Positions 1-27,445 of a stretch of 64,000 nucleotides of DNA are shown in pieces. The notes beneath the pieces were generated by a model. The model saw only the letters and a list, made by a program, of their open reading frames with translations, did no database searches and was not told the DNA's origin. The first letter of the stretch is position 1. Each line of letters starts with the position of its first letter. Location of the stretch: the NCBI GenBank assembly GCA_934486755.1, contig CAKSQT010000001.1, forward strand, positions 2,226 to 66,225, in the 5' to 3' direction. The position numbers were made by a program, and so were the translations under genes. This stretch comes from an uncultured Eubacteriales bacterium (GTDB lineage Bacteria; Bacillota; Clostridia; Oscillospirales; Acutalibacteraceae).

Positions 1-808
1 CAAGATCGTCTATATACACAGACCCGCTCATATGGGTGAAGCCTATTCTTGTCTGCGGTGAATCGGAAAGAGCGCATTCCTGATTGAAAAGCTGCATATA
101 TCCGTCTTCACTGACAAGGGTAATTTTCACCGTACCCTTTGAATATCTTGCGGATACCTGCACCCAGGTTTTAAAGGGAAGCGCCTTTGTTGAGTCCGAA
201 TTTACCGCCCTATATTCAAGTTGATTAAATCCGGGGGAATATGACGGGCTTGTGTATCCGTTCTGACCCGACGGTTTGCCGACAGGAACCGCCGTTATTT
301 TGCCTCTTATTGAACGCAACGCTATTCCGCGCCAATTTTCCTTATCCTTATAATCGTAAACAAACGTGGGATAACGGTAATTGTAGTTAGCGTCATCACA
401 TTCAAGCAGCACCTTGAAATTGACAGAATAGAGCGTCGCGTCACTCTGCAAAAAGTTTGATGACAGAAGATATATACCATTATTACCGTTTTTACCTGCC
501 TCGGAGGTGTTCTGTACCGTTATTTTCGCCGCTGTATCGCTGCTGTTAATCGTGTCTTTAAGCGGGTTTTTCACAGCCGACATTTCCGACTTTTTAACGT
601 TAGCATAATCATTGGCGAAGAACATTGACACGTTGCCGTCCTCGAAGTCGGTGCTTGTTTTGACTTCGCCGACAGGGTCAAACGGATCCGAGCCTGTATC
701 GTCCTTATCGTTATTGCTTTCGGCGTAAAGACTTACCGAGGAAACGGCAAGCATTATAACTGCCAACAAAAGTGCAAAAATTGACTTAAATGACTTTTTT
801 GTTTTCAT
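1..808 (-). CDS. secreted beta-sandwich (LamG/concanavalin-like) protein; only the 5' part of the gene is in the window
   Basis: Minus-strand ATG at 806-808 (RC of 'cat') opens a frame that runs off the left edge. The N-terminus MKTKKSFKSIFALLLAVIMLAVSSVSLYAE looks like a signal peptide. The ORF track omits it because no stop falls in the window. The visible portion resembles the first domain of the 821-2554 and 25736-27445 paralogs. Confidence 0.45.
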   Translation of the reverse strand, partial: MKTKKSFKSIFALLLAVIMLAVSSVSLYAESNNDKDDTGSDPFDPVGEVKTSTDFEDGNVSMFFANDYANVKKSEMSAVKNPLKDTINSSDTAAKITVQNTSEAGKNGNNGIYLLSSNFLQSDATLYSVNFKVLLECDDANYNYRYPTFVYDYKDKENWRGIALRSIRGKITAVPVGKPSGQNGYTSPSYSPGFNQLEYRAVNSDSTKALPFKTWVQVSARYSKGTVKITLVSEDGYMQLFNQECALSDSPQTRIGFTHMSGSVYIDDL

Positions 809-820
809 TGCCGTTCCTCC

Positions 821-2554
821 TTATTTAGTCTTTTTAGAGCCGAACTTATTATCGCCGTTTATACCGTTAAAATAATAAGAATATTTTTTATCGTTTGTCC
901 AATCCTTTACAGTATCGGGAATGGGGTCTTCCCAACCGCCGCCGACATAGTTATCGTAATCGCCGTTGATTTCATCGGGAGTCAATTCAACTATAATATT
1001 GTCTATATAACAGTCGGTCTCAAAGGTCTTTACTCCGACTCTGCCGAAGCCGATAATTTCTTCCCAGTTTCCCGCGTCTGAGGTAAGCTCACTCTTCATC
1101 GCCATACCGTCATCAGTAAATTCGATAACCTTTTCGCCGTCAAAATAGACGCATATAATATTATCGAAAACCGAGATAGCAAGGTTGTGCCACTTTCCGT
1201 CGCCTATAATATTATCAATCGGCACAGGGTCGCAAAGACGAGTACCCGTTATGTTCTTTTCCCATTTAACGGGACTGTTGACGTGTTTATAAAGCGACAC
1301 GGTCATTTGGTCGCTATTGCCGATACTCTCATTCTGCACGGTGGCGGCATAATCCGAATAGCCGTACCACTCTACTATTCGGCTTCGGGCGCTGAGTGCA
1401 ATAAAGTTATTGGCATTTTTAGACTTGGGGTCGCATTTTTCGGTGTATTGGAAATCCATACTTACCTTATAGTCCGACCAGCTTTCATCGCCTATAAAAT
1501 CAACCGAATCCTGCATAAGCTGTTTATAAAGGAAGCGGTTACCGTCCTGTACTATTTTGTCGGCATACTTGGGCGCCGCCTCATTGACAGTGCCTTCGCT
1601 TTTGGTATAATCATACTGTTTTTGCCCGCTGGTCCATTTATAGTTTTTATCGGCACCCGTGCCTGCGTCCTTGCCTATGGCGAGCTTTTTATCGTCGGAG
1701 AAGGTTTCGTATAAAACAATGTTTTCATTCCCCGAAAGGTCCAAATCGGGATCGACAGGTTCGGTAGGTTTATCCGAGCCCGATGAACTCGGCTCATCAT
1801 CACTGCCTGTATATGTGCCCTCGCCGTAAAACTTCAAATCGCTGAAATTTGTTTTAACGAACGTTGCCTCATCAACCGAGTGCAGACCGAGGCCCGCATA
1901 TATAGGGCCTGTATAGTCCATTGAAGCATATCCCGCAAGCCGCCAATTTGAATCTCCGCTGTTTTTATATCGGCACTCAACCGAATTTTTCTGAACAACA
2001 ACTTTCAATTGGAACGGGAATGAAACGTTTTTGGCAGAAGTAAACTTCCAGCTTCCTCCCGTCTTAGTACGGTAGACTATCATAAGACCCTCGGCTCTTA
2101 AATGAAGAAAAACACCCGAAGCGTCGTTTGACAGCGAGCTTCTTATCATAATTCCCGATGACGCGTTTATATTAACCGAATCGCCCGCGTTTTCAGGACC
2201 GAAGCTGTTCATAGTAGCCTCTATTGTCAGAGAATCGCTGTCCCTCGGCGCAACATTAAACTTTCTGTAAGCGAATGTTACGTCATCTGTGCTGCCCCAG
2301 TAGCAATATGCGTTTGAACGCATATCGTAACTGCCGCCGCTTTGCTTTATATCGCCTTGCGGAGTATATGCGCCCGCGCCGTTTTCAACTTCGACATTTC
2401 CGTCAATGTTTATCAGCTCCAAATCAGGATTGGTTTCATCAATTTTCTCGGCACGGGTCATAACCATATTGGAAAGCACTATTCCCACGGTCATTAACGC
2501 TACGAGCAGGATAACGGTTATATGTTTCGGTGATATTTTTACATTAGCTTTCAT
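821..2554 (-). CDS. membrane-anchored/secreted two-domain beta-sandwich protein (N-terminal concanavalin-like domain, Ser/Asp-rich linker, C-terminal LamG/DUF1080-like domain); last gene of cassette 1
   Basis: 577-aa ORF with an N-terminal signal anchor (ITVILLVALMTVGIVL). It has an SSSGSDKPTEPVDPD linker and a C-terminal 'DGKWHNLAISVFDNIICVYFDGEKV' LamG-like segment. It is paralogous to 25736-27445 (similar length and domain order). It overlaps the upstream cohesin gene by 11 nt. Confidence 0.5.
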   Translation of the reverse strand: MKANVKISPKHITVILLVALMTVGIVLSNMVMTRAEKIDETNPDLELINIDGNVEVENGAGAYTPQGDIKQSGGSYDMRSNAYCYWGSTDDVTFAYRKFNVAPRDSDSLTIEATMNSFGPENAGDSVNINASSGIMIRSSLSNDASGVFLHLRAEGLMIVYRTKTGGSWKFTSAKNVSFPFQLKVVVQKNSVECRYKNSGDSNWRLAGYASMDYTGPIYAGLGLHSVDEATFVKTNFSDLKFYGEGTYTGSDDEPSSSGSDKPTEPVDPDLDLSGNENIVLYETFSDDKKLAIGKDAGTGADKNYKWTSGQKQYDYTKSEGTVNEAAPKYADKIVQDGNRFLYKQLMQDSVDFIGDESWSDYKVSMDFQYTEKCDPKSKNANNFIALSARSRIVEWYGYSDYAATVQNESIGNSDQMTVSLYKHVNSPVKWEKNITGTRLCDPVPIDNIIGDGKWHNLAISVFDNIICVYFDGEKVIEFTDDGMAMKSELTSDAGNWEEIIGFGRVGVKTFETDCYIDNIIVELTPDEINGDYDNYVGGGWEDPIPDTVKDWTNDKKYSYYFNGINGDNKFGSKKTK

Positions 2555-4265
2555 CTATATCCGCCTCCTTATCAATGGGGTGCTTTAAAGCACGTCTGTA
2601 AAATCCGTAGCAGAAACCGAAGTTAATAAGCAACACGCCGATTACCGCAAGCATGACCCAAATTATATTGCTCATATTGCGTGTAACGAATTTTACCGTA
2701 TATTTTGCCGAATCCTTGATACGTTTTATTATTTCTTTTACGCCGCCCTCGGAATCGCCGCTGTTGTCGTTTTCGTCAATCTCAGCGGCTGTATCGCCGT
2801 CCGAATCTTCGTCCGAGTCGGTATCGTCCTGCGGCAGCTCGGCTATTGCGTCCATAAGCGAGGAAAGCAGTTGTCCCTCATTCTGCAAAAGAGCCTTTAC
2901 GCCGTCGTCAAGCATTTCGTAAGCGTAGTTTGCGATATTAACATCAATCTCATCGTCACGCGTAACCGTTTCGGGCGTTAACGACAAAACATAGGAAAAA
3001 TTATCCTTAAAAGCGTCTGCCGCTTTAATCTCGGCGGCTTTCTCAGGATTTTGAGATATTTTCAGTTCCTCGATCTTCTTTATGAGCTTTTCGAGCAGTT
3101 CCTTTTTATCTGCCAGCATTTCTACGGCATATTTATTTATCTCGTAATCGCCGAGCGCCGAAAGTGCGTTGCGCACACCCGTTTCATCACCTGTTTTGAC
3201 CGTTTCGGGCGTCAGGTCGAAAACCCATTTAAACGGCTGGGATAAATAATCGTTCACCGCTTCTTCGGCGGCGGCGCGCTGTTTCTTTTCAAGCTCCGCC
3301 CTTTCCTGTTCTTCAAGCTCGTCTTTAATCTGCGCTTTCAGGAAAGCAAGAACGCTTTTCAGCGTGTTTTTCTGCGGCATCAGTTTTGCCTGAGCCTGAA
3401 CCGACAGCTTTTCCATTTCGGTTATAGCGGTTTCGAGAGCAACAACGTCCTTAAAACTGCCGTCGGCATTTTTATCTGTCGTCACATTGAGCTTGGTGCG
3501 TGACAAAGCATAACTATGCTCCTGCTTATATTTTTCAACCTCAGCATTTACAGAGTCGTTTCCGCTTTGCTCGCGCAGGCGGTTATATTCTTTAATCGCA
3601 TTTGCAAGCGTGCTGTAATTGGTTACCAGCGGTTTTTCGGAGCCACTCAATGCCGTATACTTATTCCAAGCCGATATAATCCGTTCGTTGCAGGCATCTG
3701 TATAAACGACGGGATTATCTATTGCGTTTATCGCCGCTATTACCGCGTTAACATTATTGACGGCATTACCCGTTATGCTTCCGCCTGTCATAGTCCCTAC
3801 GGCAATATCCTTCATAGCGTTGCCTTCAAAAACATACAGCATTTCAACCGACGGTGTGATTACCGTATCCGAAAACGAGGATTTTGCGGCAAAGGTAAAT
3901 TGAAAAAGTTTACCCGACGTCAAGGTAACTTTATCAAGAGAATCCCAAATAAGCCTTACCTTACCGTTTTTATTGCTTATGGTACAGCCGTCCATATTCT
4001 TAACAAATATCTTTTCGCTGTTGCCCGAAAACGCCACTTTGCTTTCATCATACGCAATTACAAGGGAAATACCGCTGATTTGCACAGCGGCACTTCCTGT
4101 ATATTTTACGGATACCTGAAACGCGTCGTTTGCCTTTACTCCCCCGACGTCCTCAACAGACAGTGACACCGAAGTATCGGCAAACGAGGTTATGGCAACA
4201 ATCGGAAGGATAACTGTAAGCGTAAGAATAACGGCAAATATCTTTTTAAAAATACCAGTTCTCAC
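2544..4265 (-). CDS. type I membrane protein with N-terminal cohesin-like beta-sandwich domain, long helical repeat stalk, acidic tract and C-terminal TM anchor
   Basis: 573 aa with a signal peptide (MRTGIFKKIFAVILTLTVILPIVAITSFA). It is followed by about 140 aa with a cohesin-like pattern (VSLSVEDVGG..FQVSVKYTG..ISLVIAYDESKV..GKLFQFTFAA). Internal helical repeats (..LTPETVKTGDE.. / ..LTPETVTRDDE..) and a DTDSDEDSDGD acidic tract precede a single C-terminal TM (IIWVMLAVIGVLLINFGF) and a short basic tail. There is no LPXTG motif. Paralog of 27442-29154. Confidence 0.5.
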   Translation of the reverse strand: MRTGIFKKIFAVILTLTVILPIVAITSFADTSVSLSVEDVGGVKANDAFQVSVKYTGSAAVQISGISLVIAYDESKVAFSGNSEKIFVKNMDGCTISNKNGKVRLIWDSLDKVTLTSGKLFQFTFAAKSSFSDTVITPSVEMLYVFEGNAMKDIAVGTMTGGSITGNAVNNVNAVIAAINAIDNPVVYTDACNERIISAWNKYTALSGSEKPLVTNYSTLANAIKEYNRLREQSGNDSVNAEVEKYKQEHSYALSRTKLNVTTDKNADGSFKDVVALETAITEMEKLSVQAQAKLMPQKNTLKSVLAFLKAQIKDELEEQERAELEKKQRAAAEEAVNDYLSQPFKWVFDLTPETVKTGDETGVRNALSALGDYEINKYAVEMLADKKELLEKLIKKIEELKISQNPEKAAEIKAADAFKDNFSYVLSLTPETVTRDDEIDVNIANYAYEMLDDGVKALLQNEGQLLSSLMDAIAELPQDDTDSDEDSDGDTAAEIDENDNSGDSEGGVKEIIKRIKDSAKYTVKFVTRNMSNIIWVMLAVIGVLLINFGFCYGFYRRALKHPIDKEADIDES

Positions 4266-4298: not shown

Positions 4299-5936
4299 TT
4301 ATTTTGCTTTGTACTCCTGCATTTGTTTGGATACCGTTGATTTTACATCGTCAAGCTTGGCATCCTTCATCTTCTTTATCATCTGATCGTAGGTCGCGGT
4401 ATATTTGCTTCCGTTAAGCCCTGAAAGGAGCTGATCGTTATACTCTTTAATTACGCTTGCAACATTTGAAACGTCTGTAAGCATTGACGAGAGGTCTGCT
4501 CTGAAACGGTAATAAGGCGTTTTGTGAAGCGTTGGTCTTACGTTCTTTTCAAATTCGAGCGCCCACTCGGACTGACCGTCAAGAACAACGGGCGTATGGT
4601 ATAACAGATATGCGTTTGTAACCGTCCAGAAGCACTTGCCGTATTTGCAGGAAGAACTCGGCTGCACCGTATAGTCAACGCCCTGCGCGCAGTCGCCTGT
4701 AAGAGTGTAGTGATAGGTGTTATACTCCTTAGCGTACTCGCTGTTCTTTTCAAATCCGTAACAGAGGAGGTTCGCAAGGTCGTTGCCTTCCGTACCCTTA
4801 GGCGAGCGCATAAGGTCAAGCAGTTTTATAGCTTCTTTGGGATACTTTGCGGTTATCGGAATAACCTGGTATGTCGCTTCGCTTCCCAAAATAGAAACCC
4901 CGTTAAACTGCTGCTCGGTCGTGTCGAGCAAAAGTCCGTAAGTACCTATTTCACCGTTGTTAAGTATGTATTTGACGCCTCTTGCCTCGCCTGTTTCGGG
5001 ATTGTCGGTTCCGTACCACATTCCCGAACCGTCTGCCCATATAACCGATGCCCTTGTTCCGCCGCCGTTTGAGGTAAGAACATCCTCAGGAACATAGCCC
5101 GCATTGTACCATTTGCCCGCATATTCAAGGTAAAGTTTATATGCGTCTGTTTCCATAAAGTTTACCAGCTGCGCGTTATCGTCAAATGCGTCGTAGCAAA
5201 GCGACGCGCCGTTCATTGATGTGGCGCCTACAAAGTCATATCCTCTTGTCGCAAGGATTTTACCTATTGTAATTACATCAATACCGTTACCTATCGTATC
5301 GGTATCATAGGCGTCGGCAGCCCAAACTTTTTCAAGGAACTTTGTAATCTCATCATACACCGCGCGGGTCGTTTTCGTAGAACTGTGCGCCGCATTTAAC
5401 AGTGCGTCAACGTCCATATACTGATAAAGTTCGGCGGGTATATCAATTTGTGCCGACTGCTGGAATATAGGCTGCTGAATAGGCAACATATAGAGCTTGT
5501 CGTTATATGTACCGCTGTAATAATCCTCGGCATAATCCTTCATTTCCTGATAAATGTTGGGAGTATCCTTTTCATTTATAAGGTCATCAAGCTCGGAATA
5601 AGCGCCCTTTGTAATTTCACTCTCAACATCGTAGAGGTAACCCGACCACGCAATGTCAACCTGATCTCCCGCGTTCATCCAGAGCGACCAGTTTTCATTT
5701 GTCTGGTCAATAAACTCAACCTGAACGCCAGGCATAAGTTCGTTCAGTTTTTTATTAAATTCCTTGTGTACTATTTCGTCATCTTTACAGCCGAGCGCGC
5801 CTGAAAAGCCCCATTTTAATACGACCTTGCCGCCTTTGCCGCCGCAGCCCGTAAAGAGTGCCGCAATCATACTTACCGAAAGTATTGCCGCAATTATTCT
5901 GCCAAACTGTTTTTTCATAAAAATGCTCCTTTTCAA
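4299..5936 (-). CDS. ABC transporter substrate-binding lipoprotein, CUT1/LplA-like (extracellular solute-binding protein family 1)
   Basis: 545 aa with a lipobox (ALFTGCGG). The size and composition are typical of LplA/YesO-type polysaccharide-binding SBPs. It lies directly downstream of two CUT1 permeases. Paralog of 29249-30814. Confidence 0.8.
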   Translation of the reverse strand: MKRSIFMKKQFGRIIAAILSVSMIAALFTGCGGKGGKVVLKWGFSGALGCKDDEIVHKEFNKKLNELMPGVQVEFIDQTNENWSLWMNAGDQVDIAWSGYLYDVESEITKGAYSELDDLINEKDTPNIYQEMKDYAEDYYSGTYNDKLYMLPIQQPIFQQSAQIDIPAELYQYMDVDALLNAAHSSTKTTRAVYDEITKFLEKVWAADAYDTDTIGNGIDVITIGKILATRGYDFVGATSMNGASLCYDAFDDNAQLVNFMETDAYKLYLEYAGKWYNAGYVPEDVLTSNGGGTRASVIWADGSGMWYGTDNPETGEARGVKYILNNGEIGTYGLLLDTTEQQFNGVSILGSEATYQVIPITAKYPKEAIKLLDLMRSPKGTEGNDLANLLCYGFEKNSEYAKEYNTYHYTLTGDCAQGVDYTVQPSSSCKYGKCFWTVTNAYLLYHTPVVLDGQSEWALEFEKNVRPTLHKTPYYRFRADLSSMLTDVSNVASVIKEYNDQLLSGLNGSKYTATYDQMIKKMKDAKLDDVKSTVSKQMQEYKAK

Positions 5937-6809
5937 TTATTCTTTTACCGAGCCGACGGCAATTCCCTTTGCAAAATACTTTTGCATATACGGGAAAAGC
6001 AGCAAAATCGGTATAGTGGCTATGATACACATAGCGTATTTCATAGTTTCAAGCGGTATTGCCGAGGTATCCCTTACCCCTGATTCTTTAAGCGCTTTAA
6101 CAAGAACGTCGGCGCTGTTAAGTATTTTTTGCATTAAAAACTGTATTGTCCAATACTCTTTTTTCGTTATATAGATTAGTGAGGTCTGCCAGTTATTCCA
6201 ACCTCCGACAACACCTGTGAAAAAGTTCATTCCGATTATCGGCTTTGACATCGGCATCACTATGCTCCACAGGGTTCTGAACTGACTTGCCCCGTCTATC
6301 TCCGCCGACTCAATAAGCGATTTCGGCACACCCTTAAAAAACGTTTTGTAAACTATAACGCCCCACGCACCGACAGCAGGCAACAAATACACCATCGGAT
6401 TGTCTTTCATATGATAAAGCTGTGTGTAAACCATATACGTCGGCATTAAACCGCCGCTTACAAACATTGTACCCAGCAGAATGACATTTACAGGCTTTTT
6501 TAAAATAAAGTCGTCCCTTGTAAGGGGATAGGCAAAGGCACAGTTGACAACTATATTTATCACAGTTGCGAGAAGTGCAACAATTATCGTAAATATAATT
6601 GCTCTGCCCATAACCGCTATGTTTTCAAACAGCATTTTATATGCCGCAACCGACCAGATCTTCGGTATAAATGAAAAGCCGTATGTGGAAAACTCCGCCT
6701 CGCCAGTGAACGAAATTATAAGTATCATCAGCACAGGAACTAAAAATATAAGGGTCATTATCGCGAAAAAAATATGTAAAACTATCGGATATACTTTTCC
6801 GTCCTTCAT
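5937..6809 (-). CDS. sugar ABC transporter permease, LplC/YtcP-like (MalG-type)
   Basis: 290 aa with multiple TM segments and the EAA-like loop 'ESAEIDGASQFRTLWSIVMPMSKP'. Adjacent to the SBP gene with a 0-nt gap. Paralog of 30857-31783. Confidence 0.8.
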   Translation of the reverse strand: MKDGKVYPIVLHIFFAIMTLIFLVPVLMILIISFTGEAEFSTYGFSFIPKIWSVAAYKMLFENIAVMGRAIIFTIIVALLATVINIVVNCAFAYPLTRDDFILKKPVNVILLGTMFVSGGLMPTYMVYTQLYHMKDNPMVYLLPAVGAWGVIVYKTFFKGVPKSLIESAEIDGASQFRTLWSIVMPMSKPIIGMNFFTGVVGGWNNWQTSLIYITKKEYWTIQFLMQKILNSADVLVKALKESGVRDTSAIPLETMKYAMCIIATIPILLLFPYMQKYFAKGIAVGSVKE

Positions 6810-7778: not shown

Positions 7779-9401
7779 CTAATTCGCGTCTTCAACCGTA
7801 TCGTCAAGTACGTCTGCGCGTGTACGTTTTAAAAGCAGATGCCACTTAACAATAACCAAAACGGTAAATGCGATAAGTACAACTATAATCACAGCCAATA
7901 CTATAAAAAGTATCTTTTCAGCAAGGCTTACCTTGGCGCCCTTATTTTCAACGACCGTTGACACGCCGCCCGACTCTGTATTTTCGGTGTTCTCAGCACC
8001 GTCCGTATCTGTATCGGTCTGACTGTCCGCTCCGCTTTCAGTCTGAGCGTCGCCCGCCTGAGCCTGCGAATTATCCGAACCGCTTGCCGTCCCCGCACCG
8101 CTTTCCGCAAGCGGAACATACGAATCGGGAGAAGTTATCGGATGAACGTCTTTAAGCTGAGGATACGCCCCGTCGCTTACCTTCCACGCCGATATGCTGC
8201 TAAACGCTGCGTTAATTTCAGCCATAGAGCCTGCCGCAAAACCTATTTCCAAGCCGCCTGGGGCGTCGCTTATCCAGTTGTTCTTTGTAAGCGTCTTATT
8301 AGTCTGTGATTTTGTTCTTCCCTCAATAACTGCGGTTGTGTAGCAGTTTTCACACGCTTCGGTGTTTTTCTTAATACCTGAGCCGTAAACATCGGTGGCG
8401 TAGAAACACCCCGAGGAGCTGGTCATTACTTTGCCGCCCGCCCAACAGTTTTTAACATACGAATCCCCTGTCATGGGTCCGCAGAACGCGCCCGCGCTGG
8501 TATAACCGCCTGTGAAGCTGCCCTGATAAAAACAATTTTCAATGTTGACCTTGCCGTTATATTTGCCCCAATATGTTTCATTGCCGCCGCAAAAACCGCC
8601 TGAATTCCAAACGCCTGTCGTGGTGACATTTGCATACGAATAACTGTTTTTGATACTTGCGGTTTTTCCTTTTTCGGCAGAAAGTGTTCCGACAAGACCG
8701 CCGACATTGTTTGAGGCGCTTGTTACCGTTCCCGAAGAACCGCAGCCTGTTATTTTTGTGTTGAGCGCCGTTCCGACAAGTATTCCCGTTGACTGTTCAA
8801 GCGACTGTCCCGGATTTGTTGACCAGTCGCTGTTCATTTGGGAGTTGCCTTCAACGGTACTCTTAACAGTTGCGTTAAGTATTACAATATTTTTGAGCGT
8901 TGCTCCCTTTGTCTGACCGAAAAATCCTGCTTCCCAGCCCATAGAACCGTCGCTTTTGAAACCGCTGTACTTTTCAGCAAGGGTAGAGCCTGTCGGTCTA
9001 TGGTCTATGCTGAGATTTTTAATTATGTATTTAGGAGTGCCGTCAGACGCCTTATCACAGGTGAAAGTGCCCGTAAACGGAGCGCTGAATTTTCCTATTG
9101 GGACAAAATTCGCAACCGACGACATATCAATATTATTCGCCAGTTTATAGTTTGCAGAAAGATTGTTTCTTATTTCGTCTACCTGCTGTGCATTTGTTAC
9201 AAGGTACGGACTTTTAACCGTGCCTTTGCCCTTTCCGCTGAACCCTGCCGCTTTCACCGAAAACTGTGAGATTCCGAAGACACAAACGCTCAAACACGTA
9301 ATCATCAAAATGCTCGTTACCTTAAATAGCGATTTCATTTTCATTTTTTTGATTGCCCCTTTCAAAAATTGCAAAAAAATTCCATTTTTCAAGATTGACA
9401 T
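7779..9401 (-). CDS. GLUG-motif beta-helix surface protein with signal peptide and C-terminal TM anchor; first gene of cassette 1 (start more likely at 9344)
   Basis: The N-terminal mature region 'KSPYLVTNAQQVDEIRNNLSANYKLANNIDMS...PIGKFSAPFTGTFTCDKASDG..IIKNLSID' matches the GLUG/IgA-protease-like N-terminal consensus. Gly/Ser-rich beta-helix-like repeats follow. The C-terminal helix ILFIVLAVIIVVLIAFTVLVIV is hydrophobic. An internal ATG at 9344 (MKMKSLF..) follows GAAAGGGG and gives a cleaner signal peptide. Paralog of 32709-34526. Confidence 0.5.
   Translation of the reverse strand: MSILKNGIFLQFLKGAIKKMKMKSLFKVTSILMITCLSVCVFGISQFSVKAAGFSGKGKGTVKSPYLVTNAQQVDEIRNNLSANYKLANNIDMSSVANFVPIGKFSAPFTGTFTCDKASDGTPKYIIKNLSIDHRPTGSTLAEKYSGFKSDGSMGWEAGFFGQTKGATLKNIVILNATVKSTVEGNSQMNSDWSTNPGQSLEQSTGILVGTALNTKITGCGSSGTVTSASNNVGGLVGTLSAEKGKTASIKNSYSYANVTTTGVWNSGGFCGGNETYWGKYNGKVNIENCFYQGSFTGGYTSAGAFCGPMTGDSYVKNCWAGGKVMTSSSGCFYATDVYGSGIKKNTEACENCYTTAVIEGRTKSQTNKTLTKNNWISDAPGGLEIGFAAGSMAEINAAFSSISAWKVSDGAYPQLKDVHPITSPDSYVPLAESGAGTASGSDNSQAQAGDAQTESGADSQTDTDTDGAENTENTESGGVSTVVENKGAKVSLAEKILFIVLAVIIVVLIAFTVLVIVKWHLLLKRTRADVLDDTVEDAN
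9364..9381. promoter_or_regulatory. single ATTGCAAAA box (aaaaattgcaaaaaaatt) just upstream of the RBS of the GLUG/Lpl operon
   Basis: Same TTGCAA-palindrome box as the paired sites at 9508-9545 and 11129-11166. It lies 20-35 nt upstream of the likely start at 9344. Confidence 0.35.
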
Positions 9402-11128: not shown

Positions 11129-11166
11129 CACAATTGCAAAATGAGAAATAACTATTGCAAAAAGCG
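11129..11166. promoter_or_regulatory. paired ATTGCAAAA boxes (21-bp spacing) in the divergent araC-like/GH promoter region
   Basis: cacaATTGCAAAAtgagaaataactaTTGCAAAAAgcg lies 45-80 nt upstream of the probable TTG start (11212) of the AraC-family gene. Confidence 0.45.
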
Positions 11167-11976
11167 TCTTATTGTGTTAGTATACATTCGGAATTTATTC
11201 AAGGAGGGTTTGTTTTGCAGCAATATCTCGATCTTACAACGGTTCCAACCTATATGTTTGCGGGTTTCAGAAAGTTTTCGCCCTACGAGCGCCATATAAA
11301 CCGAGTCTCGTCTGAAAACGTGCTGTTGCTGATACTTAACGGCACATTGACATTTAAAGAGGACGGAAAAGAGGTTACATTAAATAAAGGCGAATATTAC
11401 ATACAAAAATCGGGCGGTTTGCAGGAGGGACACAAAGCAAGTCTTGAACCCTACTACTTTTTCATACATTTTACAGGCACAGTAAACGCAAATCCCGACG
11501 GCATACCGATACGCGGCACATTTTCAACAGGTGAATTTATGCCGCTGATAAACAGTTTAAATCAGTCGATTATTGACGCAAAGGGCAATAATTTCAAAAA
11601 GACATTTTTATTTATGCAAATTATTAATAATTTAATTCCGGTTAAGCACAGCACCTCTGACAAATTAGTTGACCTTATGAAAGAAATTATGGAAAAAAAT
11701 TATTCGCAAGACTTTCTTATAGAAAATCTTGCGAACCAACTTAATTATTCTAAGGATTACATAATTAAAAAATTCAAGAAAACGGCAGGTATAACCCCGC
11801 ACCAATACTTAACGCGGCTGAGAATATCAAAGGCTAAAAACCTATTGATCTCCTCCGAAAAAACACTTGAAGAAATTTGCTCGGAGTGCGGATTTACCGA
11901 CATTTCGACCTTTCACCGCAATTTTGCAAAGGAATCGGGAACCACACCCCACAAATTCAGGTCAAAAAATCTGTAA
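11155..11976 (+). CDS. AraC/XylS-family transcriptional regulator (probable start TTG at 11212 after AAGGAGGG)
   Basis: C-terminal dual HTH region 'DYIIKKFKKTAGITPHQYLTRLRISKAKNLL..TLEEICSECGFTDISTFHRNFAKESGTTPHKFR' is classical AraC-type. The N-terminal domain is consistent with a cupin-like effector domain. Confidence 0.85.
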   Translation: MQKASYCVSIHSEFIQGGFVLQQYLDLTTVPTYMFAGFRKFSPYERHINRVSSENVLLLILNGTLTFKEDGKEVTLNKGEYYIQKSGGLQEGHKASLEPYYFFIHFTGTVNANPDGIPIRGTFSTGEFMPLINSLNQSIIDAKGNNFKKTFLFMQIINNLIPVKHSTSDKLVDLMKEIMEKNYSQDFLIENLANQLNYSKDYIIKKFKKTAGITPHQYLTRLRISKAKNLLISSEKTLEEICSECGFTDISTFHRNFAKESGTTPHKFRSKNL

Positions 11977-20242: not shown

Positions 20243-23200
20243 TTACAGTCCCAATATTTTTTTACGAAGCAGGTTTGCGTCGTTAGTGGTTATCTCGCCG
20301 TCGCCGTCCATATCGGCACGGGCAATCTGCCTGTCGGTAAGCTCTACCTTGCCGAGAATGCAGTAGCGGATAAGAGTAACGTCCTTAACGGTAATTCTGC
20401 CGTCGCCGTTTACGTCGCCCATATCGGTGCCGCCTGTGCGTTTATAGTCCTCCTCTGACATATAACGGAAATTATTTACAACGTTTACATACTGCTCGGA
20501 GGAAATTCGGTTCACAAGACTTGTGTTGTAGCACTCGTCGCTGTCGTAAGTGTTGCCGCGCAGGTACACGCCGTCGCTGCCGTCGGCATTTCCGAATTCT
20601 ATGCCGTATTTCGCGTCGGCGCCGAAGTAGTTGTTTTCTATAACGAAATCGCGGCAGTAGTTCTGGTTGCCCATAACACTCATATAAGAACCGTCGTTCA
20701 ATGTGTTACCCTTAAAGAGGAACGCCATTGAGGAAAGCGGGCGCAATCCGTGCATCAGCATAAACTGCCAATGACCCCAATCGGTCTGACCCTGCGCGGT
20801 ATTGCCTAAGCCCTGACCGTGCATATAAAACGGGTCGTCAAGCGTTGCGTTTACAATACTTGTGTACCAGTTTACGCCCTCATGGGTGTTAAATATCTGA
20901 CCGCCGAATTCCTTATAGGTATTGCCGTCAAACACGGTGTTGATGATAGAACCGTAGGTTCCTGCGGCGCCGCCGCTCTCATAGGAGTTATCTATGAAAT
21001 ATCCGTTAGAACGTGCTTTTTGAATGGCTATAAGGGAGTTGCGGTTCGGACGTACGGCAAAAGGTTTATCCACCTTAATGTCGGAGCCTTTGTTTTCGAC
21101 TATACGTCTTGTCTGACCGACGCCCTGACCGGATATAACATAAACGTCATATCCTACAAGTTGACCCGACTGATAGTTCTTATCTTTCAGGCGGTAGGTG
21201 ACCTCGTCAACATTGGCGGAGCCCATTATTGCGGCGTTATCGCCTATGAACTGCATTACGCCGCCGTCAAGCAGGTGGGTACCGTCGGTCGTGGTAACCT
21301 CGTGGTTATTTCTGCTCGATCCCTTAAATGCGACATTTTTAACGTATATCTCGCCGCTGAGCGCAAGTCCGCCGCCGTTTTCGGGATTGCGGCAATTTTC
21401 AACTATAAGCGCCTGCGTTGAAGCGCAGGGGCACCAGGAATAGAAATCACTGCCTTCAAAACGTGAAAATCTCCAATCTCCGTTTACGCCCTGAATACAA
21501 CCTATATCCATCCACAGTGTAAAATCGGAAAGTTGACCGTTTTCTACCCTGCCCATATCAAGATAGGCGGTGTTTCTGCCGTTTACTTTTCTGGTTTCGG
21601 CTTGTATGTCGTTAGCCATTTCAACCGTAGTGTAGCCCGAGTTCTTTATCGGGGTACCGTCACCGGAGGTGGTGGCGCCCGTTAATTCCTGCAAGTGCAG
21701 GTAAACATCCTTGATGTAAACGTTTTCGGACATCTTCTGCAAACCGCTGAACGTTTTATTTGCAAAACCGCGGAATATTGATTTATGCCTTACCCCATAG
21801 AAAGCAATTCCTTCTATCGAAACGTTGCTTGTATACTGTACGTAAGCGTCAGGCGCGTCGCCCATCATCCAAGCAGTCGGGGTATACATTATTTTGGTTC
21901 GGTTTATACCCTCGCCCTTAAACACAACGTTTTCGGGGATTGTGAGGGTGTTGGTAACACGGTAAATACCTCTCGGCAGATATACAACCCCGCCGCCGTT
22001 TTCAGCCGCGTCTATCAAAGCCGATATTATCGACGCGGTGTCGTTCGTGGTACTGTCGCCTTTGGCGCCGTATTTTTCATCCTGAACGTTAAACACGGTC
22101 TTGCTCCAAGAATCGCGCGGAGAGGCGCCCACCGTGACCTCAAACGGTTCGGACCACGCGGTATTGTCGCCGTAGCCGTTATAAACAATGAGGTTATATT
22201 TACCGTAGGGAACGTCATTCGGAACGGCGATTTTAACGGAATACTCGTCATCATAAAGCTCGGTTATTCCGAGGGTGCGTTTATACGTTCCGTTTGTTAT
22301 TACCGCAGAGAGCTTTGTTACGTCCTGAACAAGCGCCAAGTTACTGCCCTGCGCCCTTATCCAGCCGCCCTGAGTTGCGGTTTTGCCCTCATCGGAAACG
22401 GTGAATTGGATATGAGGGTTATTGATGTAGATAATAACATCGTCAACGGTAAGCCCCGTCATATTGGATATCTGACCCTTATTTACGGCTTTGAGCTTGA
22501 CCGCGTAAACGCCCTTTTGGAAGTTCTCGGGTATTATGAATTTAACCGAAGTCGCGGTCTTTTGCTTGATTTCAAGGGTCTGAGCCTGTGCGTCGTTCCA
22601 AGTCGGCTGTGCGCCGCCCTCCGCCGCCTTCGACTGGAAGGACTGCTCGCCGATATAGGAGGCGTTAGCAGGTTCAAGCGTATTGCCAATCTGCATAATC
22701 TCAACGCCGCTTACGGTCTTGCCGATGTTCTCGCCCGTAACGGTCACCATATCGCCGGGGTTCATTTCGGTATTACCCGAATAGAAGACCTGAATATCGT
22801 TAGGTGCTACGTTTACGTCATAGTCGCCCTTTTTGAAGGCTACGTCAACGTCGTCAACGTAATAGTCATAGGATTTCCAAGTGCTGGGCGTTCCGAAACC
22901 GAAAGCAAGTCTGCCGTATTCCAAAGGCATTCCGAAAATAGCGGAGAGCTTATTTTCGTGTTCGTCGGTAAACGATATTGAACCGCTTATTCCGTTATAG
23001 TTTATTGTAACGGTTATCCAATCGGACGCTGTAAGCGCTTCGTGGTCAAGGCTTCCCATCCAGCCTGAACCGCCGTTATTCGCGCCGTCCTGAATTGTGC
23101 TTGCCGCAACCATTGTGCCTGTCGCGTTATATCCAATACTTGTATAATTATTAACGTCAAGGAAAGAAGGCATAAAGCTCGTTCTGTTAAACGCGTTGCC

Positions 23201-25720
23201 TTCAAGGGTAGACGATGTAACTTTCATTCGGAAAGACACATTCGTCATAACGCCGCCGTTTGCCCACAGCTCGTCGCGTATGGTTATAAATCCGCCGTTG
23301 GCGCTTACCTTCATAACCTTATTCGTCGGATCGGTCGGGTCGGTTACAACCTCAAAGTTCTCGGTTCCCGTTATCTTATTTGTATCTTTGGTGAATTTTG
23401 CCCACTGCTTTAAGGAACCAGATGAAAAATCGTCGGTAAAATGGGTGGTATAATCACCTTCCTTACGGGGTTCAAAATAGTTATTAATTGCTTCTTTGAG
23501 TTCAAGTATATGCTCATAAAATCCCGAAAGTATCAGGCGGGACATATCGTCAAGTCCGTTATACTCCGCAACAGCTTGTTCCACAAGAGCGCTGTGGGAC
23601 GGACGCGCGTCGGCGGCGTCAAGCGCTTCAAGAGCCGCATATTTCTGCTTAAACGCCGCAGTTTCGGCATTATCGCTCAGGAAAACCGACAGTTTAGCAG
23701 CAAATCCGTTATTCAAAAGATAATCCTTTGCTTTTGAGTCTAACTTATTCCAATCGTCAAGCGCGCTTTCAAGAAGCAGTTTATCCGCGTCGGTCAGTTC
23801 TTCGGTTGTCTTGCCGATTAAAGAGGAATACTTAGCCTCAAACAGTCTTCCCATATCCTGCGAATCGTTAAAGGTTCCGCTGACGGTTATATTGTCAACG
23901 TCAACACCTGCGTTCTGGGATATTATTTTCGGAGAGAGGGTAAGACCCGTACCCTCTGGGAAAGTGTAGGTTATCTTTTTAGCGGGCAGAGTTATCTGCT
24001 TTATCTCGGTATCCTCGGACAGCTCTTTATATCCGCTCTCGGCAGTATAATGCTGATAACCGTAGAGAGTCAATATATAGCTTACCGCAACCTCGCGCTT
24101 GCTTTCCCAATTTGTGTAATCAAAGGTTGCGTCAACCTTTGTCCACATATTTCTCTGCCAATTACCGAGACGGTAAGACTCATTGGCTACCCAAGCAGGG
24201 TCCTTTACCACCGTAGCGAGTTTTGAATCGTTATCTTTCGGTGTAAATGTTATTGTCTTATCAGTCGAGACGGCTTTTACAAAATATCCGCCGTCCTGCG
24301 AACGGAAGCAGATACCCGCGCCTATGCCATTCTCCTCGTCATAAAGGAAATACAGGTTTCCCGTTCCCTTTTCAAACCTGAACGAAGCGGAAGCGTTAGC
24401 GGGCTTGTTGCCCTTAGTCCAATACTTCTGATTAACGCCGACTGCGGACTCCTTGCCGAGAGTTACATAGTTATTAACGCCGTCCTCGGTATCCTCAAAG
24501 ACATAATCCGCCGTACCCTCGGTTTTTACATATTTTTCGGTAAACCACGAATCTTCAAAATCCACGGGAGTGAATTTCGCCATATTGGTGATTACGAAAT
24601 CGCCCTTTGCGTCTATCAGCGCTTTTTCGGCGGCAAGGTTCTGTTTTGCGTATTCGCTTAACTTCTCGTAGACCGACATAGCCTCGCCGAAAAGCGCTAT
24701 ATCTTCATCGGTCATTTTTGAGGTTTCAATTTTTAACACCTCGCCGTATTTCTGCTTATAAGCGTCTGCGTCTATCTTGGCGTTTAATTTATCGACCGCG
24801 TCCTTTTGAGCGGAAACGACCTTGCTTACATTCGCTTTTTCAAGAACGGTTTTAACATTGCTGTCAAACTTATTGTAATCGTTGTAAGCCGCTGTAACAG
24901 CTTCGGTATCGGCAAGAGTAAGACTGTCAACCGCCTTATTAAGCACGGTGTTTTCGGCTATAAACTGCTTTGCGGTTACCGCATAGGACTCAATTTTAAG
25001 GTTGTCGAGCTTCATTGAGCCTGTTGACCTGAACATCGGCACAAGCGTAGTAATATCGGTTAAATTATCAAAACTTCTTGTTGCCTCGGCGGTATCGTCG
25101 CCCAAGGCAATTTGCGTTGAGGTTGACGACAGTTTCATAATATCGCCGCTTTGATATTTAAGCACGCCGTTTATTTTGAGCTTTATTGTGACCTTGGTTC
25201 CGTTATATGAAAACTCATATTCATAATGAGCCTTTTTAAACGGTTCAAGCTCGGCGTAAACGCTGTTGTCCTGCGGTACCCAGAAGCAGCCGCAGAATTT
25301 ATTTGCCCAGTCGCCGCCTATTTCCTTAACGGTGCCGTCGGTCATCGTCGCCTTTGTGGCGAACAGTCCGCCGTCGTTATTTCTGACGGTGTTGCCGACC
25401 GCGTTGCCGTTTTTATCGGTCAAGAAAAAATATCCCGTACCCGACACATTGGTGAGGTCGAACGAAATTTTGGTCGGCTTGTTGCCGCCACACCACCATT
25501 TATCAGCTACCTGAACGTCTTTATCCTTTTCAACGGTGAGTGCGCCGTCGGTTATGTTTGAAGCGTTGGTCAGCTTATCGGTCGCCGCCGAAAAGTCTTC
25601 GCTTTCTATAACGTTTATCTGCTTAAAGGTCACCGTTTCGGCGGTGGCAAACAGCGGCAGATACGTAAGGCAGAGAGCTAACGCAACAAGACACGCTGTA
25701 ATTTTATATGTTCTTTTCAT
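20243..25720 (-). CDS. 1825-aa secreted cellulosomal-type protein: novel N-terminal WxxGNKP modules (x2), helical linkers, pectate-lyase-superfamily right-handed beta-helix domain, C-terminal type I dockerin
   Basis: Signal peptide MKRTYKITACLVALALCLTYLPLFATA. 'KYGAKGDSTTNDTASIISALIDAAENGGGVVYLPRGIYRVTNTLTIP' is the hallmark start of Pectate_lyase_3/GH55/GH28-like beta-helices. The C-terminal 'DVNGDGRITVKDVTLIRYCILG...ADMDGDGEITTNDANLLRKKILGL' is a canonical duplicated Ca-binding dockerin. Only 15 nt separate it from the upstream cassette-2 gene. Confidence 0.8.
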   Translation of the reverse strand: MKRTYKITACLVALALCLTYLPLFATAETVTFKQINVIESEDFSAATDKLTNASNITDGALTVEKDKDVQVADKWWCGGNKPTKISFDLTNVSGTGYFFLTDKNGNAVGNTVRNNDGGLFATKATMTDGTVKEIGGDWANKFCGCFWVPQDNSVYAELEPFKKAHYEYEFSYNGTKVTIKLKINGVLKYQSGDIMKLSSTSTQIALGDDTAEATRSFDNLTDITTLVPMFRSTGSMKLDNLKIESYAVTAKQFIAENTVLNKAVDSLTLADTEAVTAAYNDYNKFDSNVKTVLEKANVSKVVSAQKDAVDKLNAKIDADAYKQKYGEVLKIETSKMTDEDIALFGEAMSVYEKLSEYAKQNLAAEKALIDAKGDFVITNMAKFTPVDFEDSWFTEKYVKTEGTADYVFEDTEDGVNNYVTLGKESAVGVNQKYWTKGNKPANASASFRFEKGTGNLYFLYDEENGIGAGICFRSQDGGYFVKAVSTDKTITFTPKDNDSKLATVVKDPAWVANESYRLGNWQRNMWTKVDATFDYTNWESKREVAVSYILTLYGYQHYTAESGYKELSEDTEIKQITLPAKKITYTFPEGTGLTLSPKIISQNAGVDVDNITVSGTFNDSQDMGRLFEAKYSSLIGKTTEELTDADKLLLESALDDWNKLDSKAKDYLLNNGFAAKLSVFLSDNAETAAFKQKYAALEALDAADARPSHSALVEQAVAEYNGLDDMSRLILSGFYEHILELKEAINNYFEPRKEGDYTTHFTDDFSSGSLKQWAKFTKDTNKITGTENFEVVTDPTDPTNKVMKVSANGGFITIRDELWANGGVMTNVSFRMKVTSSTLEGNAFNRTSFMPSFLDVNNYTSIGYNATGTMVAASTIQDGANNGGSGWMGSLDHEALTASDWITVTINYNGISGSISFTDEHENKLSAIFGMPLEYGRLAFGFGTPSTWKSYDYYVDDVDVAFKKGDYDVNVAPNDIQVFYSGNTEMNPGDMVTVTGENIGKTVSGVEIMQIGNTLEPANASYIGEQSFQSKAAEGGAQPTWNDAQAQTLEIKQKTATSVKFIIPENFQKGVYAVKLKAVNKGQISNMTGLTVDDVIIYINNPHIQFTVSDEGKTATQGGWIRAQGSNLALVQDVTKLSAVITNGTYKRTLGITELYDDEYSVKIAVPNDVPYGKYNLIVYNGYGDNTAWSEPFEVTVGASPRDSWSKTVFNVQDEKYGAKGDSTTNDTASIISALIDAAENGGGVVYLPRGIYRVTNTLTIPENVVFKGEGINRTKIMYTPTAWMMGDAPDAYVQYTSNVSIEGIAFYGVRHKSIFRGFANKTFSGLQKMSENVYIKDVYLHLQELTGATTSGDGTPIKNSGYTTVEMANDIQAETRKVNGRNTAYLDMGRVENGQLSDFTLWMDIGCIQGVNGDWRFSRFEGSDFYSWCPCASTQALIVENCRNPENGGGLALSGEIYVKNVAFKGSSRNNHEVTTTDGTHLLDGGVMQFIGDNAAIMGSANVDEVTYRLKDKNYQSGQLVGYDVYVISGQGVGQTRRIVENKGSDIKVDKPFAVRPNRNSLIAIQKARSNGYFIDNSYESGGAAGTYGSIINTVFDGNTYKEFGGQIFNTHEGVNWYTSIVNATLDDPFYMHGQGLGNTAQGQTDWGHWQFMLMHGLRPLSSMAFLFKGNTLNDGSYMSVMGNQNYCRDFVIENNYFGADAKYGIEFGNADGSDGVYLRGNTYDSDECYNTSLVNRISSEQYVNVVNNFRYMSEEDYKRTGGTDMGDVNGDGRITVKDVTLIRYCILGKVELTDRQIARADMDGDGEITTNDANLLRKKILGL

Positions 25721-25735: not shown

Positions 25736-27445
25736 TTAATAGAATGAAATCTTGTTATCAATATAATATTGATAAAGTTCCTTGCTTATCGGCTCGTTCC
25801 AACGTCCGCCGATGAAGTTGTCAAAATCTCCGCCGAGCGGGTCTTCGAGCTTGCGAACCGTTATATTATCCACATTAACGGTAACATTTGAGCCGTATAA
25901 GCCGATATTGCCGTATGCGGGTATTTCAATGCGGTTTGCGTTGGTATTCTCGCTTAAATCGTCAACATAGGAAATTACTTCCTCGTCATTCCAATAAATC
26001 TTTATTGTGTTGTCAAGCAGATCCATACGCAGATTGTTCTTCTTGCCCGAAAGTATAAGGTCGTATGCCTCGGGATCCTCGGCGTCAAGATAGTTGAGCG
26101 TTACGGTTTTAAGCGCCGTCTGATAAGCCTTTGATTTATCGGTCATCATATTAGCGTAACCGAGGGTGAGCGTTTGGATTATCTTGGTGTGCTTGACCTG
26201 CGTTCCGTCAACCTCTTCGACAACGGTTTGGGTTTTGCTTGAAAGAACCGCCGAATAGGACGATATGCCGTGCATTTTGTTGTATTTAAGTCTGCCGATA
26301 AGTCCGAATGTGTTGGTGTTTGTAAGCGAAATATCGCTTGGGAAGGTAATATCGCACGAAACGGAATAATCGGTCCAGTCGGTACTGCCCGCAAACCAAA
26401 GCCCGTCGCTCACTGGGGTTATAGCAAGATAGCGGTTGGTCTTATCCTTGTTAAGCTCTACCGTTGTTTCGGAAGCGGTGGTCTGCCATATCGGGTTTTC
26501 AACGCTTTCCTCGCCGTCGAACATTGAACCGTCGGTAAAGGTCTCTCTTAACAGAATATCCTCTGTCGGCGGAAGGTCTGGCGGCAGGGTTATCTCGCTT
26601 GACGAGGAGGACGAAGAAGACGATGACGGATTATCGGGGTCTTCGTCAAGCTGATAGCCTTCATAAGCCGTTACCTCAACGCTGAAATCGCTGAAAACGG
26701 CGGTTGCAAGGTCGCTCCTGTCGGTCGAAGAAGCGCCCAAGCCTATGTAAATATCCTTATCGAACTTCACAAACACACCCGACTGTATGGTGACCCATGA
26801 CTTAGGATTGGACGGGGTGAAGTTATATTCGGATTTAACCTTTCCTACGCCCTTGCCCGTTGTAACAAAGGTCATACGGAGCCTTATTCCGTTATCGTAT
26901 CTCGGCGGCTCCTTATAGCTAAGGTTGGAGTTACAAACCTTGCCTGTTTCGGTTCTTGAAACCATAAGCATAGCCTCGGGACGTGCGTGCGCAAGCGCCA
27001 TTGAGGCTCTGCCGTTAAGGCTTGAACGCAGGAGTATGCCTGCCGAGGCGGTTGTGGCAAACGCCGACCAGGAATTAAGCGTTACCTCCGCCGTAACGGT
27101 CGCCTCGTCGTCAACACGGTAGTTGAAGGGTATTTTAAGGTATGCGTAGTCAACCTGATCGCCGTCATACCAGCAGGCAAAGCTGTTGGTTTTTATTGTG
27201 TAGCGGCGGCTTGATTCGTCGCCCGATTCCTCATAGCTTCCGTCGGAGTCATCGAACACCCTTTTTGCGCCGTCGATTGTGGCATAATCCGCCTTTACCT
27301 TGGCAAATTCAAGCTGCGGGTTTACGGATTTTGATACCGTAACCATATCCGCTTTTACATTCATAGAGATGATAAGCGCCGACGCGCAGAGTATAGCCGC
27401 TAACGCAACGCAGATTATCTTTTTTGTTCTTGAAACGTTTGTCAC
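25736..27445 (-). CDS. two-domain beta-sandwich protein with Ser-rich linker (LamG/DUF1080-like C-terminal domain); paralog of 821-2554
   Basis: 569 aa with an N-terminal signal/anchor (IICVALAAILCASALIISMNV) and an SSSSSSSSSSE linker. The C-terminus 'GGRWNEPISKELYQYYIDN' parallels 'GGGWEDPIPDTVKDWTND' of the paralog. Confidence 0.5.
   Translation of the reverse strand: MTNVSRTKKIICVALAAILCASALIISMNVKADMVTVSKSVNPQLEFAKVKADYATIDGAKRVFDDSDGSYEESGDESSRRYTIKTNSFACWYDGDQVDYAYLKIPFNYRVDDEATVTAEVTLNSWSAFATTASAGILLRSSLNGRASMALAHARPEAMLMVSRTETGKVCNSNLSYKEPPRYDNGIRLRMTFVTTGKGVGKVKSEYNFTPSNPKSWVTIQSGVFVKFDKDIYIGLGASSTDRSDLATAVFSDFSVEVTAYEGYQLDEDPDNPSSSSSSSSSSEITLPPDLPPTEDILLRETFTDGSMFDGEESVENPIWQTTASETTVELNKDKTNRYLAITPVSDGLWFAGSTDWTDYSVSCDITFPSDISLTNTNTFGLIGRLKYNKMHGISSYSAVLSSKTQTVVEEVDGTQVKHTKIIQTLTLGYANMMTDKSKAYQTALKTVTLNYLDAEDPEAYDLILSGKKNNLRMDLLDNTIKIYWNDEEVISYVDDLSENTNANRIEIPAYGNIGLYGSNVTVNVDNITVRKLEDPLGGDFDNFIGGRWNEPISKELYQYYIDNKISFY

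Follow-up and report, generated by a model that had tools for sequence, protein, structure and literature searches.

Single-cohesin membrane proteins encoded with dockerin-bearing enzymes in two sugar-importer operons of an uncultured gut Oscillospirales bacterium

Introduction

Most work on cohesin-dockerin pairs has concerned their part in holding together large cellulosomes and amylosomes. The DNA analysed here, a stretch of 64,000 nucleotides (the window) from an uncultured Eubacteriales bacterium of the family Acutalibacteraceae, order Oscillospirales (GenBank assembly GCA_934486755.1, contig CAKSQT010000001.1, positions 2,226 to 66,225 of the forward strand), encodes two proteins with a single cohesin each, and both genes lie in operons for ATP-binding cassette (ABC) sugar importers. 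What does a lone cohesin do beside a sugar importer? The proteins in question are cohesin-TM (transmembrane) protein A (2544..4265, minus strand; 573 aa, GTG start) and its paralog of the same architecture, protein B (27442..29154, minus strand; 570 aa). It is probable that A and B are monovalent membrane-anchored scaffoldins, each of which tethers the enzyme of its own operon beside the importer. The cassettes would then represent a minimal form of the cohesin-dockerin system, with one socket and one plug in an ABC sugar-uptake operon, in uncultured Oscillospirales of human and animal guts.

Results and Discussion

Proteins A and B each carry one cohesin

By sequence and by fold, A and B each carry one true cohesin. 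The Pfam Cohesin model PF00963 scores 39.5 bits in A (residues 34-165) and 40.1 bits in B (residues 44-169) against a curated cut-off of 24.1, and both matches span nearly all of the 139 positions of the model. AlphaFold2 (AF2) models, built on alignments of 13 homologues for A and 16 for B, contain a beta-sandwich at residues 33-166 of A and 31-171 of B, with predicted local distance difference test values, taken in blocks of 10 residues, of 82-92 and 81-94, respectively. DSSP assigns only strands to the domain in both proteins, with no inserted helix, which is a type I-like topology. When the models were compared with the PDB by Foldseek, cohesins made up 39 of the top 40 matches for A and all 50 of the matches listed for B, with E values down to 2e-8 and target TM-scores of 0.65-0.83, the highest being 0.75 for A and 0.83 for B. 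These include the type I cohesins of R. cellulolyticum, C. acetobutylicum and A. thermocellus OlpA and OlpC, as well as ScaC of R. flavefaciens and non-cellulosomal cohesins of C. perfringens and Archaeoglobus; the one unrelated fold, matched by A at rank 29, is a CLIPPER domain. An initial annotation of this DNA had staked its cohesin assignment on structural comparison, and the assignment comes through it, nearly all top Foldseek matches being cohesins. A phmmer search of PDB sequences with protein A gave noise only (E >= 0.33). A family hidden Markov model run over the 64-kb window detected no cohesin beyond those of A and B.

The two proteins align end to end with 23% identity (E 3e-17) and are old paralogs sharing one architecture. 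The gene for protein A has a Shine-Dalgarno sequence, GAAAGGAG, 8 nt 5' of the GTG start codon, and the start codon is conserved among orthologues. The possibility that protein A is an artefactual open reading frame (ORF) was rejected on account of the Shine-Dalgarno sequence, the conserved orthologues and synteny.

A dockerin-bearing enzyme is encoded two genes downstream

The cohesin gene is the fifth of seven in both cassettes, which are tightly packed and encoded on a single strand in the order GLUG-TM protein, permease, permease, DUF3502 binding protein, cohesin-TM protein, LamG-like protein and beta-helix-dockerin enzyme. In every cassette, a dockerin enzyme is encoded two genes downstream of the cohesin gene, and each cassette has one cohesin and one dockerin. 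The enzyme of cassette B (20243..25720, minus strand) is a protein of 1825 aa with a signal peptide, a pectate-lyase-like beta-helix (match at residues 1210-1283) and a C-terminal type I dockerin (residues 1767-1823, 20252-20422, minus strand; Dockerin_1, 47 bits). The gene for the cassette A enzyme runs off the window, which holds its first 269 codons (1..808, minus strand). A related locus, L002, is 92-99% identical to cassette A and encodes the full enzyme of 1501 aa, with a beta-helix and a Dockerin_1 match at residues 1369-1416 (42.6 bits). The two tandem Ca2+-binding loop-helix repeats (DxNxDGxxxxxD) of the type I dockerin family PF00404 are present in both enzymes, as DVNGDGRITVKD and DMDGDGEITTND in enzyme B and as DVNLDGEVTLKD and DVNNDGKVNLKD in the L002 enzyme A. 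The cassette B dockerin matches the solved Xyn10B dockerin 1ohz_B (E 9e-8), and the dockerins of the cassette enzymes also match the solved type I dockerin 4fl4_A (E 4e-5). The initial annotation had reported no dockerin, which is correct for the cohesin proteins themselves but not for their operons. The cassette B enzyme is the presumed ligand of cohesin B.

The dockerin of cassette B ends its protein, unlike that of cassette A, which is internal. In cassette A enzymes, the dockerin is followed by a Gly/Asn/Ser linker and a tail of about 70 residues, helical and rich in Ala/Glu/Lys (L002 residues 1420-1501; L004 likewise).

Because the dockerin-bearing enzyme lies two genes downstream in every cassette, the best reading of the sequence data is that the cohesin protein is no orphan but a monovalent anchor for a partner encoded in cis. 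Gene order of this kind is conserved. Eight related loci have enough flanking DNA for comparison, and the cassette is complete in seven and has a fragmented enzyme gene in one. The full order is found in both window cassettes and in L002-L005, L006, L009 and L011. L002-L005 are from four species-level genomes, which are metagenome-assembled genomes of uncultured Eubacteriales/Ruminococcaceae from the human gut, and L009 and L011 are from ENA metagenome assemblies for which the sampled host is not stated. L006 represents a third clade, with a cohesin protein 27% identical to protein B, and has a complete cassette that includes an enzyme with Pect-lyase-like and Dockerin_1 domains. The cassette therefore recurs in three divergent clades. 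In L010 (13437-17736), the dockerin enzyme gene is split into five ORFs, with the dockerin on a fragment of 68 aa; either the locus is misassembled or its cassette is decaying.

The rates of divergence within the cassette differ. Among orthologues with an overall identity of about 60%, identity is 53-56% in the cohesin domain, compared to 87-91% in the permeases and 85% in the binding protein. The cohesin changes faster than the transporter, which is consistent with a specificity that evolves together with that of a partner.

Alternatively, the cohesin could be a promiscuous, general-purpose anchor that displays many or all dockerin proteins of the cell, possibly including adaptor scaffoldins, with its position in an ABC operon reflecting only co-regulation and not a dedicated 1:1 pair. 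The window encodes a third dockerin bearer, unrelated to either cassette, that could be such a client: a BspA-type leucine-rich-repeat (LRR) protein of 1031 aa with a C-terminal Dockerin_1 match of 37 bits (55441-58536, minus strand), which has no cohesin gene next to it. OlpA and OlpC are single-cohesin anchors that bind many enzyme dockerins, which also speaks for a promiscuous cohesin. Moreover, a recent preprint draws TM-anchored cohesins as anchors of whole cellulosome-like assemblies (bioRxiv 10.64898/2026.02.05.704116). However, one cohesin and one dockerin per cassette have been kept across three clades, and the same genome encodes two cohesins only 23% identical, each next to a divergent dockerin of its own, an arrangement more easily explained by separate specificities. 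A general-purpose role thus seems unlikely, and the dedicated, cis-encoded anchor is preferred.

The operons encode LplABC-type importers

The proteins encoded between the first gene and the cohesin gene are those of an LplABC-type (CUT1) importer, namely a DUF3502 lipoprotein and two BPD_transp_1 permeases. In cassette A, the permeases (5937-6809 and 6822-7763, minus strand) score 43.6 and 32.6 bits with BPD_transp_1, and the LplA-type solute-binding lipoprotein (4299..5936, minus strand) has the lipobox LFTGC and a C-terminal DUF3502 domain. The cassette B permeases (30857-31783 and 31790-32749, minus strand) are paralogs 41-47% identical to those of cassette A, and the binding lipoprotein of cassette B (29249-30814, minus strand) has the lipobox FAGC. 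The two lipoproteins score 43.5 (A) and 64.6 (B) bits with DUF3502. No ATPase gene is found within the cassette; importers of the LplABC/CUT1 class usually have none in the operon. The Lpl-type ABC operon context noted in the initial annotation is thus confirmed in both window copies and extends to the eight related loci.

Each cassette begins with the gene for a GLUG-motif type I membrane protein (7779..9401 in A and 32709-34526 in B, both minus strand), which has a signal peptide, a C-terminal TM helix and a charged tail and thereby the same topology as the cohesin proteins; in GLUG protein B, stretches before the TM helix resemble the helical module of the stalk described below, as judged by eye only. 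The sixth gene encodes a LamG/3-keto-disaccharide-hydrolase-like protein (821..2554, minus strand) that is secreted or N-terminally anchored in cassette A, and a LamG-like protein in cassette B (25736..27445, minus strand). Its start overlaps the end of the cohesin gene by 11 nt (A) and 4 nt (B). The four other extracytoplasmic parts of the cassette all look membrane-tethered, two by type I TM helices, one by a lipobox and one by an N-terminal hydrophobic segment, which fits assembly at the membrane surface. NCBIfam gave no meaningful match for any cassette protein. Promoter and terminator scans remained at chance level, with terminator-like sites no commoner than in shuffled sequence.

Topology and membrane anchor

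The layout proposed in the initial annotation for both proteins, a signal peptide, one N-terminal cohesin and about 300 helical residues, is borne out by hydropathy, Pfam, AF2 and Foldseek. Protein A consists of a signal peptide (residues 1-29; 4179-4265), the cohesin (residues 30-166; 3768-4178), a stalk of helical modules R1-R4 (residues 167-480; 2826-3767), an acidic disordered linker (residues 481-528; 2682-2825), a juxtamembrane segment with the TM helix (residues 529-561; 2583-2681) and a cytoplasmic tail (2544-2582), all on the minus strand. The AF2 models have, besides the beta-sandwich, a signal-like N-terminal helix in both proteins, a helical region (residues 169-476 of A and 178-465 of B), a disordered stretch (residues 480-532 and 470-529) and a terminal TM helix (residues 533-561 and 530-565). 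The predicted template modelling scores of the models are 0.37-0.42, so that the mutual arrangement of the modules is undefined.

Hydropathy reveals exactly two hydrophobic segments in each protein, one signal-like at the N-terminus and one at the C-terminus. The first is followed by a conserved AXA-type cleavage site, SFA|D in A and VNA|A in B. The second is followed directly by basic residues, YRRALKH in A and QYLKQKK in B. Hydropathy and AF2 thus agree with the predicted type I single-pass topology of the initial annotation, with a signal peptide, one C-terminal TM helix and positive-inside residues. The label "tail-anchored", also used there, is wrong; tail-anchored proteins have no signal sequence, whereas A and B have a cleavable signal peptide and a stop-transfer helix. 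The basic tail holds in part. A K/R cluster does lie beside the membrane, but the tail of A as a whole is not basic, with 4 K/R and 5 D/E in the last 25 residues. A motif scan found no LPXTG-like motif and Pfam no SLH domain in A or B, in agreement with the initial annotation, which had noted the absence of LPXTG, SLH and dockerin from these proteins. A lipoprotein anchor for the cohesin protein was rejected, as there is no lipobox Cys. The combination of a cohesin and a predicted C-terminal TM helix, with dockerin bearers encoded in the same organism, is that of a cell-anchoring scaffoldin under the 2024 classification, which accepts a C-terminal TM helix as an anchor besides SLH and LPXTG (PMC11557425).

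The architecture is widespread. A profile search of 1.84 billion representative sequences gave 3881 matches at E <= 1e-3, of which 307 had E <= 1e-30. Among the best 150 representatives, 76 are of similar length (480-760 aa); 60 of these 76 have a signal-like N-terminus and a C-terminal TM helix, and none has LPXTG in the C-terminal 60 residues. When the representative and homologue searches are combined, 65 family members share the signal peptide and single C-terminal TM helix, and none has LPXTG. The first 12 residues of their tails have a mean net charge of +2.9, and the tails after the TM helix have a median length of 19 residues and reach 33. At least 65 clusters at 50% identity share the signal peptide-cohesin-stalk-TM architecture. 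The sole name attached to any member of the family is "hypothetical protein [Clostridia bacterium]".

Many of the 65 family members also have a juxtamembrane pattern, h-x-h-x-x-(N/S/K)R-x-(M/I)(S/G), which in A lies within 2583-2710 (minus strand). It directly precedes a (V/I)W(I/V)LL... helix with an aromatic-rich end, which is followed by K/R. The pattern is absent from clade B, including protein B of the window. A motif, a TM helix and K/R in this order have the layout of known C-terminal sorting domains, and the tripartite segment could be cleaved by a sortase- or exosortase-like enzyme, leaving a mature protein that is wall-linked or released. Such processing is very unlikely. There is no LPXTG, no NCBIfam sorting-domain model matches at E <= 0.1, and protein B lacks the motif, as does the rest of its clade. 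Sorting-signal tails are also usually shorter than the median of 19 residues found here, and a lasting contact between helices would account at least equally well for the residues conserved within the TM segment. A cleaved sorting signal is therefore less likely than contact with a partner, and permanent anchoring by the TM helix remains the preferred reading.

The stalk

The initial annotation had described a duplicated "LTPETV..DE" unit in protein A. This duplication is real: residues 331-409 and 410-480 are related with z = 12.2 over shuffled sequences, and hhalign gives a probability of 97% and E 1e-11. A third copy, residues 237-330, is also significant, and the first helical unit, residues 167-236, has no significant relation to the other repeats of A. 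The acidic tract that was said to follow the repeats is present in A (14 D/E in the 30 residues 471-500) but not in B, where the corresponding linker is rich in Ser/Thr/Asn.

In the AF2 models, the stalk does not form a single extended coiled coil but is composed of three or four helical-bundle modules, with a longest helix of 46 residues (about 7 nm), and a disordered linker of about 50 residues. Its reach may be roughly 10-25 nm. The "tens of nanometres" proposed previously is overstated and is better taken as an upper bound, given that the models contain bundles and no helix longer than 46 residues.

Modules R3 and R4 of A (residues 331-480; 2826-3275, minus strand) are 71-82% identical in the orthologues that are about 60% identical overall. 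They are the best conserved part of the protein, above the cohesin domain. This conservation makes it probable that the helical region does more than act as a spacer, and R3/R4 together with the juxtamembrane motif could mark contacts with other cassette proteins. The stalk module, of about 70 residues, is also present in as many as 30 copies in surface proteins of Clostridia that reach 3512 aa. These giant proteins, the remaining matches of the profile search, often have Listeria-Bacteroides repeats or Big_2 domains and lack a cohesin. Pfam searches of six giant module-rich proteins gave only sub-threshold or scattered matches over the repeats, and the module belongs to no Pfam family. The analysis thus flags an unannotated helical module that is widespread in giant surface proteins of Clostridia.

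The conservation of R3/R4 above all other parts, and the abundance of the module in proteins without a cohesin, would fit a protein in which the stalk, and not the cohesin, is central. In that case, the cohesin fold would not bind a dockerin but serve as a glycan-binding or structural module, the protein would be an accessory subunit that binds glycans at the surface or is associated with the transporter and acts by way of its helical modules, and the dockerin of the enzyme would bind another cohesin. The presence of non-cellulosomal cohesin-like modules and of the CLIPPER domain (rank 29 for A) among the fold matches is compatible with such a role. It is, however, quite improbable. The Pfam scores are well above the cut-off, the structures matched best belong to type I cohesins that do bind dockerins, and a dockerin is always encoded two genes away.

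Proposed function of the cassette

In the proposed mechanism, the cohesin protein would be exported by Sec and its signal peptide cut at SFA|D (A) or VNA|A (B). The C-terminal helix would stop transfer, so that the K/R that follow stay in the cytoplasm. The helical modules and the disordered linker would carry the N-terminal cohesin through the wall or to its edge. There, the cohesin would capture, in a Ca2+-dependent manner, the type I dockerin that the second gene downstream provides on its product, a giant glycan-degrading enzyme with a beta-helix. The enzyme, of 1500-1800 residues, would work at the cell surface beside the binding lipoprotein and the LplBC-type permeases of the same operon, and the LamG-like and GLUG proteins, likewise tethered to the membrane, would have accessory or glycan-binding roles. 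The oligosaccharides released would be imported and finished by cytoplasmic glycosidases.

Several points weigh against this proposal. The pairing of cohesin and dockerin is read from synteny, and the organism has other dockerin proteins, such as the LRR protein (55441-58536). Further cohesins may be encoded outside the window, in which case a cohesin could have many ligands or a cassette dockerin could be bound elsewhere. The TM helix and signal peptide are called from hydropathy and AF2, and the juxtamembrane motif, TM helix and basic cluster leave room for processing by a sorting enzyme. Finally, a stalk that is purely a spacer leaves the conservation of R3/R4 above that of the cohesin unexplained.

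A bolder version of the proposal would account for the stalk. The cassettes may be self-contained "plug-and-socket" units with orthogonal pairs, in which R3/R4 and the juxtamembrane/TM motif attach the anchor to the binding protein, the permeases, or the LamG-like or GLUG partners of its own cassette, to form an enzyme-importer supercomplex. This version is possible but doubtful. If it is true, the supercomplex would be a Gram-positive counterpart of the Bacteroidota utilisome, and several diverged copies of such a unit could arise in the same genome with no cross-talk between them.

The dedicated pairing has consequences of its own. If true, it would explain how enzymes of 1500-1800 residues without a wall motif are retained on Gram-positive gut bacteria. 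It would also offer a simple rule for assigning an enzyme to a transporter, and would provide naturally orthogonal, membrane-anchored cohesin-dockerin pairs for the engineering of surface display.

Relation to known systems

OlpA and OlpC of Acetivibrio (Clostridium) thermocellus are like A and B in having one type I-like cohesin on a cell-bound protein, and their cohesin structures (3ul4_A; 4dh2_A/C) are among the fold matches, with target TM-scores up to 0.76. They tether individual dockerin-bearing enzymes directly to the cell surface via SLH repeats. Unlike A and B, they have no TM anchor, no stalk of helical modules and no ABC importer operon with a ligand encoded in cis. A small single-cohesin, membrane-associated protein, ORFXp, is reportedly encoded in the cip-cel cellulosome cluster of Ruminiclostridium cellulolyticum. 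It differs from A and B in architecture and is not known to be part of a transporter operon.

The functional logic of the cassettes is that of the Sus-like complexes of Bacteroidota and of Gram-positive polysaccharide utilisation loci (PULs), in which an enzyme, glycan-binding proteins and an importer are co-encoded and co-localised for product capture. The anchors in Bacteroidota are outer-membrane lipoproteins that act with a TonB-dependent transporter, and the enzymes of Gram-positive PULs are usually sortase-anchored. In the cassettes, by contrast, a cohesin-dockerin pair would provide a non-covalent hold on the enzyme.

Among the gut bacteria of the Oscillospirales, the order to which the source of A and B also belongs, some small scaffoldins that fix dockerin partners to the cell are sortase-anchored, as with ScaE of R. 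flavefaciens and R. champanellensis and Sca2 and Sca5 of R. bromii (PMC5814915). These proteins have a C-terminal LPXTG and are joined covalently to peptidoglycan, unlike A and B. The cohesins of ScaE type are type III and match less well, with target TM-scores of about 0.45-0.55. The "mucinolysome" of Limousia was considered as a match and rejected, as its anchor is LPXTG and not a TM helix.

The initial annotation had suggested that the anchoring mode may define a new class. As a category, however, this mode is not new, since two surveys had already predicted single cohesins with a C-terminal TM helix. In 2024, a "C-terminal TM-helix" was listed among nonSLH-anchoring scaffoldins, with Herbinix luporum, C. 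cibarium and Lachnoclostridium MSJ-17 as examples, the partners being unclear for some (PMC11557425). In 2026, TM-anchored single cohesins were listed for R. difficilis, Ruminococcus sp. HUN007, JE7B6 and zg921/924 (bioRxiv 10.64898/2026.02.05.704116). Both are predictions only. Compared by description, these scaffoldins follow the same predicted principle as A and B, a single cohesin with a C-terminal TM helix. In the text searched, neither survey mentions an ABC transporter, an operon context or a cis-encoded partner, and the preprint mentions no helical stalk. A search of the literature on cohesins or dockerins with ABC transporters or PULs, of incomplete coverage, found no description of the cassette. 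The parts, namely cohesin, dockerin, TM anchor and ABC importer, are known. Their arrangement, however, appears not to have been described: the family is large and has no name, each transporter operon carries a single cohesin-dockerin pair, and one genome has this unit in duplicate.

Regulators and neighbouring genes

Probable regulators lie next to both cassettes. An AraC-family regulator gene (11155..11976, plus strand) is divergent and upstream of cassette A, a position conserved in orthologous loci. Directly downstream of cassette B is a gene for an AraC-type response regulator (18681-20126, minus strand), followed by one for a His_kinase-family sensor (16993-18675, minus strand). A response regulator/sensor pair also trails the orthologous cassette in L009. 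It is probable that the AraC regulator controls cassette A and that the response regulator and histidine kinase control cassette B.

Three other neighbouring genes were observed. Between the AraC regulator gene and cassette A lies a gene for a protein of 457 aa that lacks a signal peptide and matches part of Glyco_hydro_10 (9614-10987, minus strand); a counterpart is absent at the equivalent position of L002. A secreted protein of 1103 aa without any Pfam match (13014-16325, minus strand) is conserved beside the cassette in L002, where it is 88% identical. In orthologous loci, a gene for a cytoplasmic GH125 alpha-1,6-mannosidase, which has no signal peptide, directly follows that of the cassette A dockerin enzyme (18013-19281 of L002 and 17912-19180 of L004; Pfam, 483 bits), and its place after the enzyme hints at a mannose-containing substrate.

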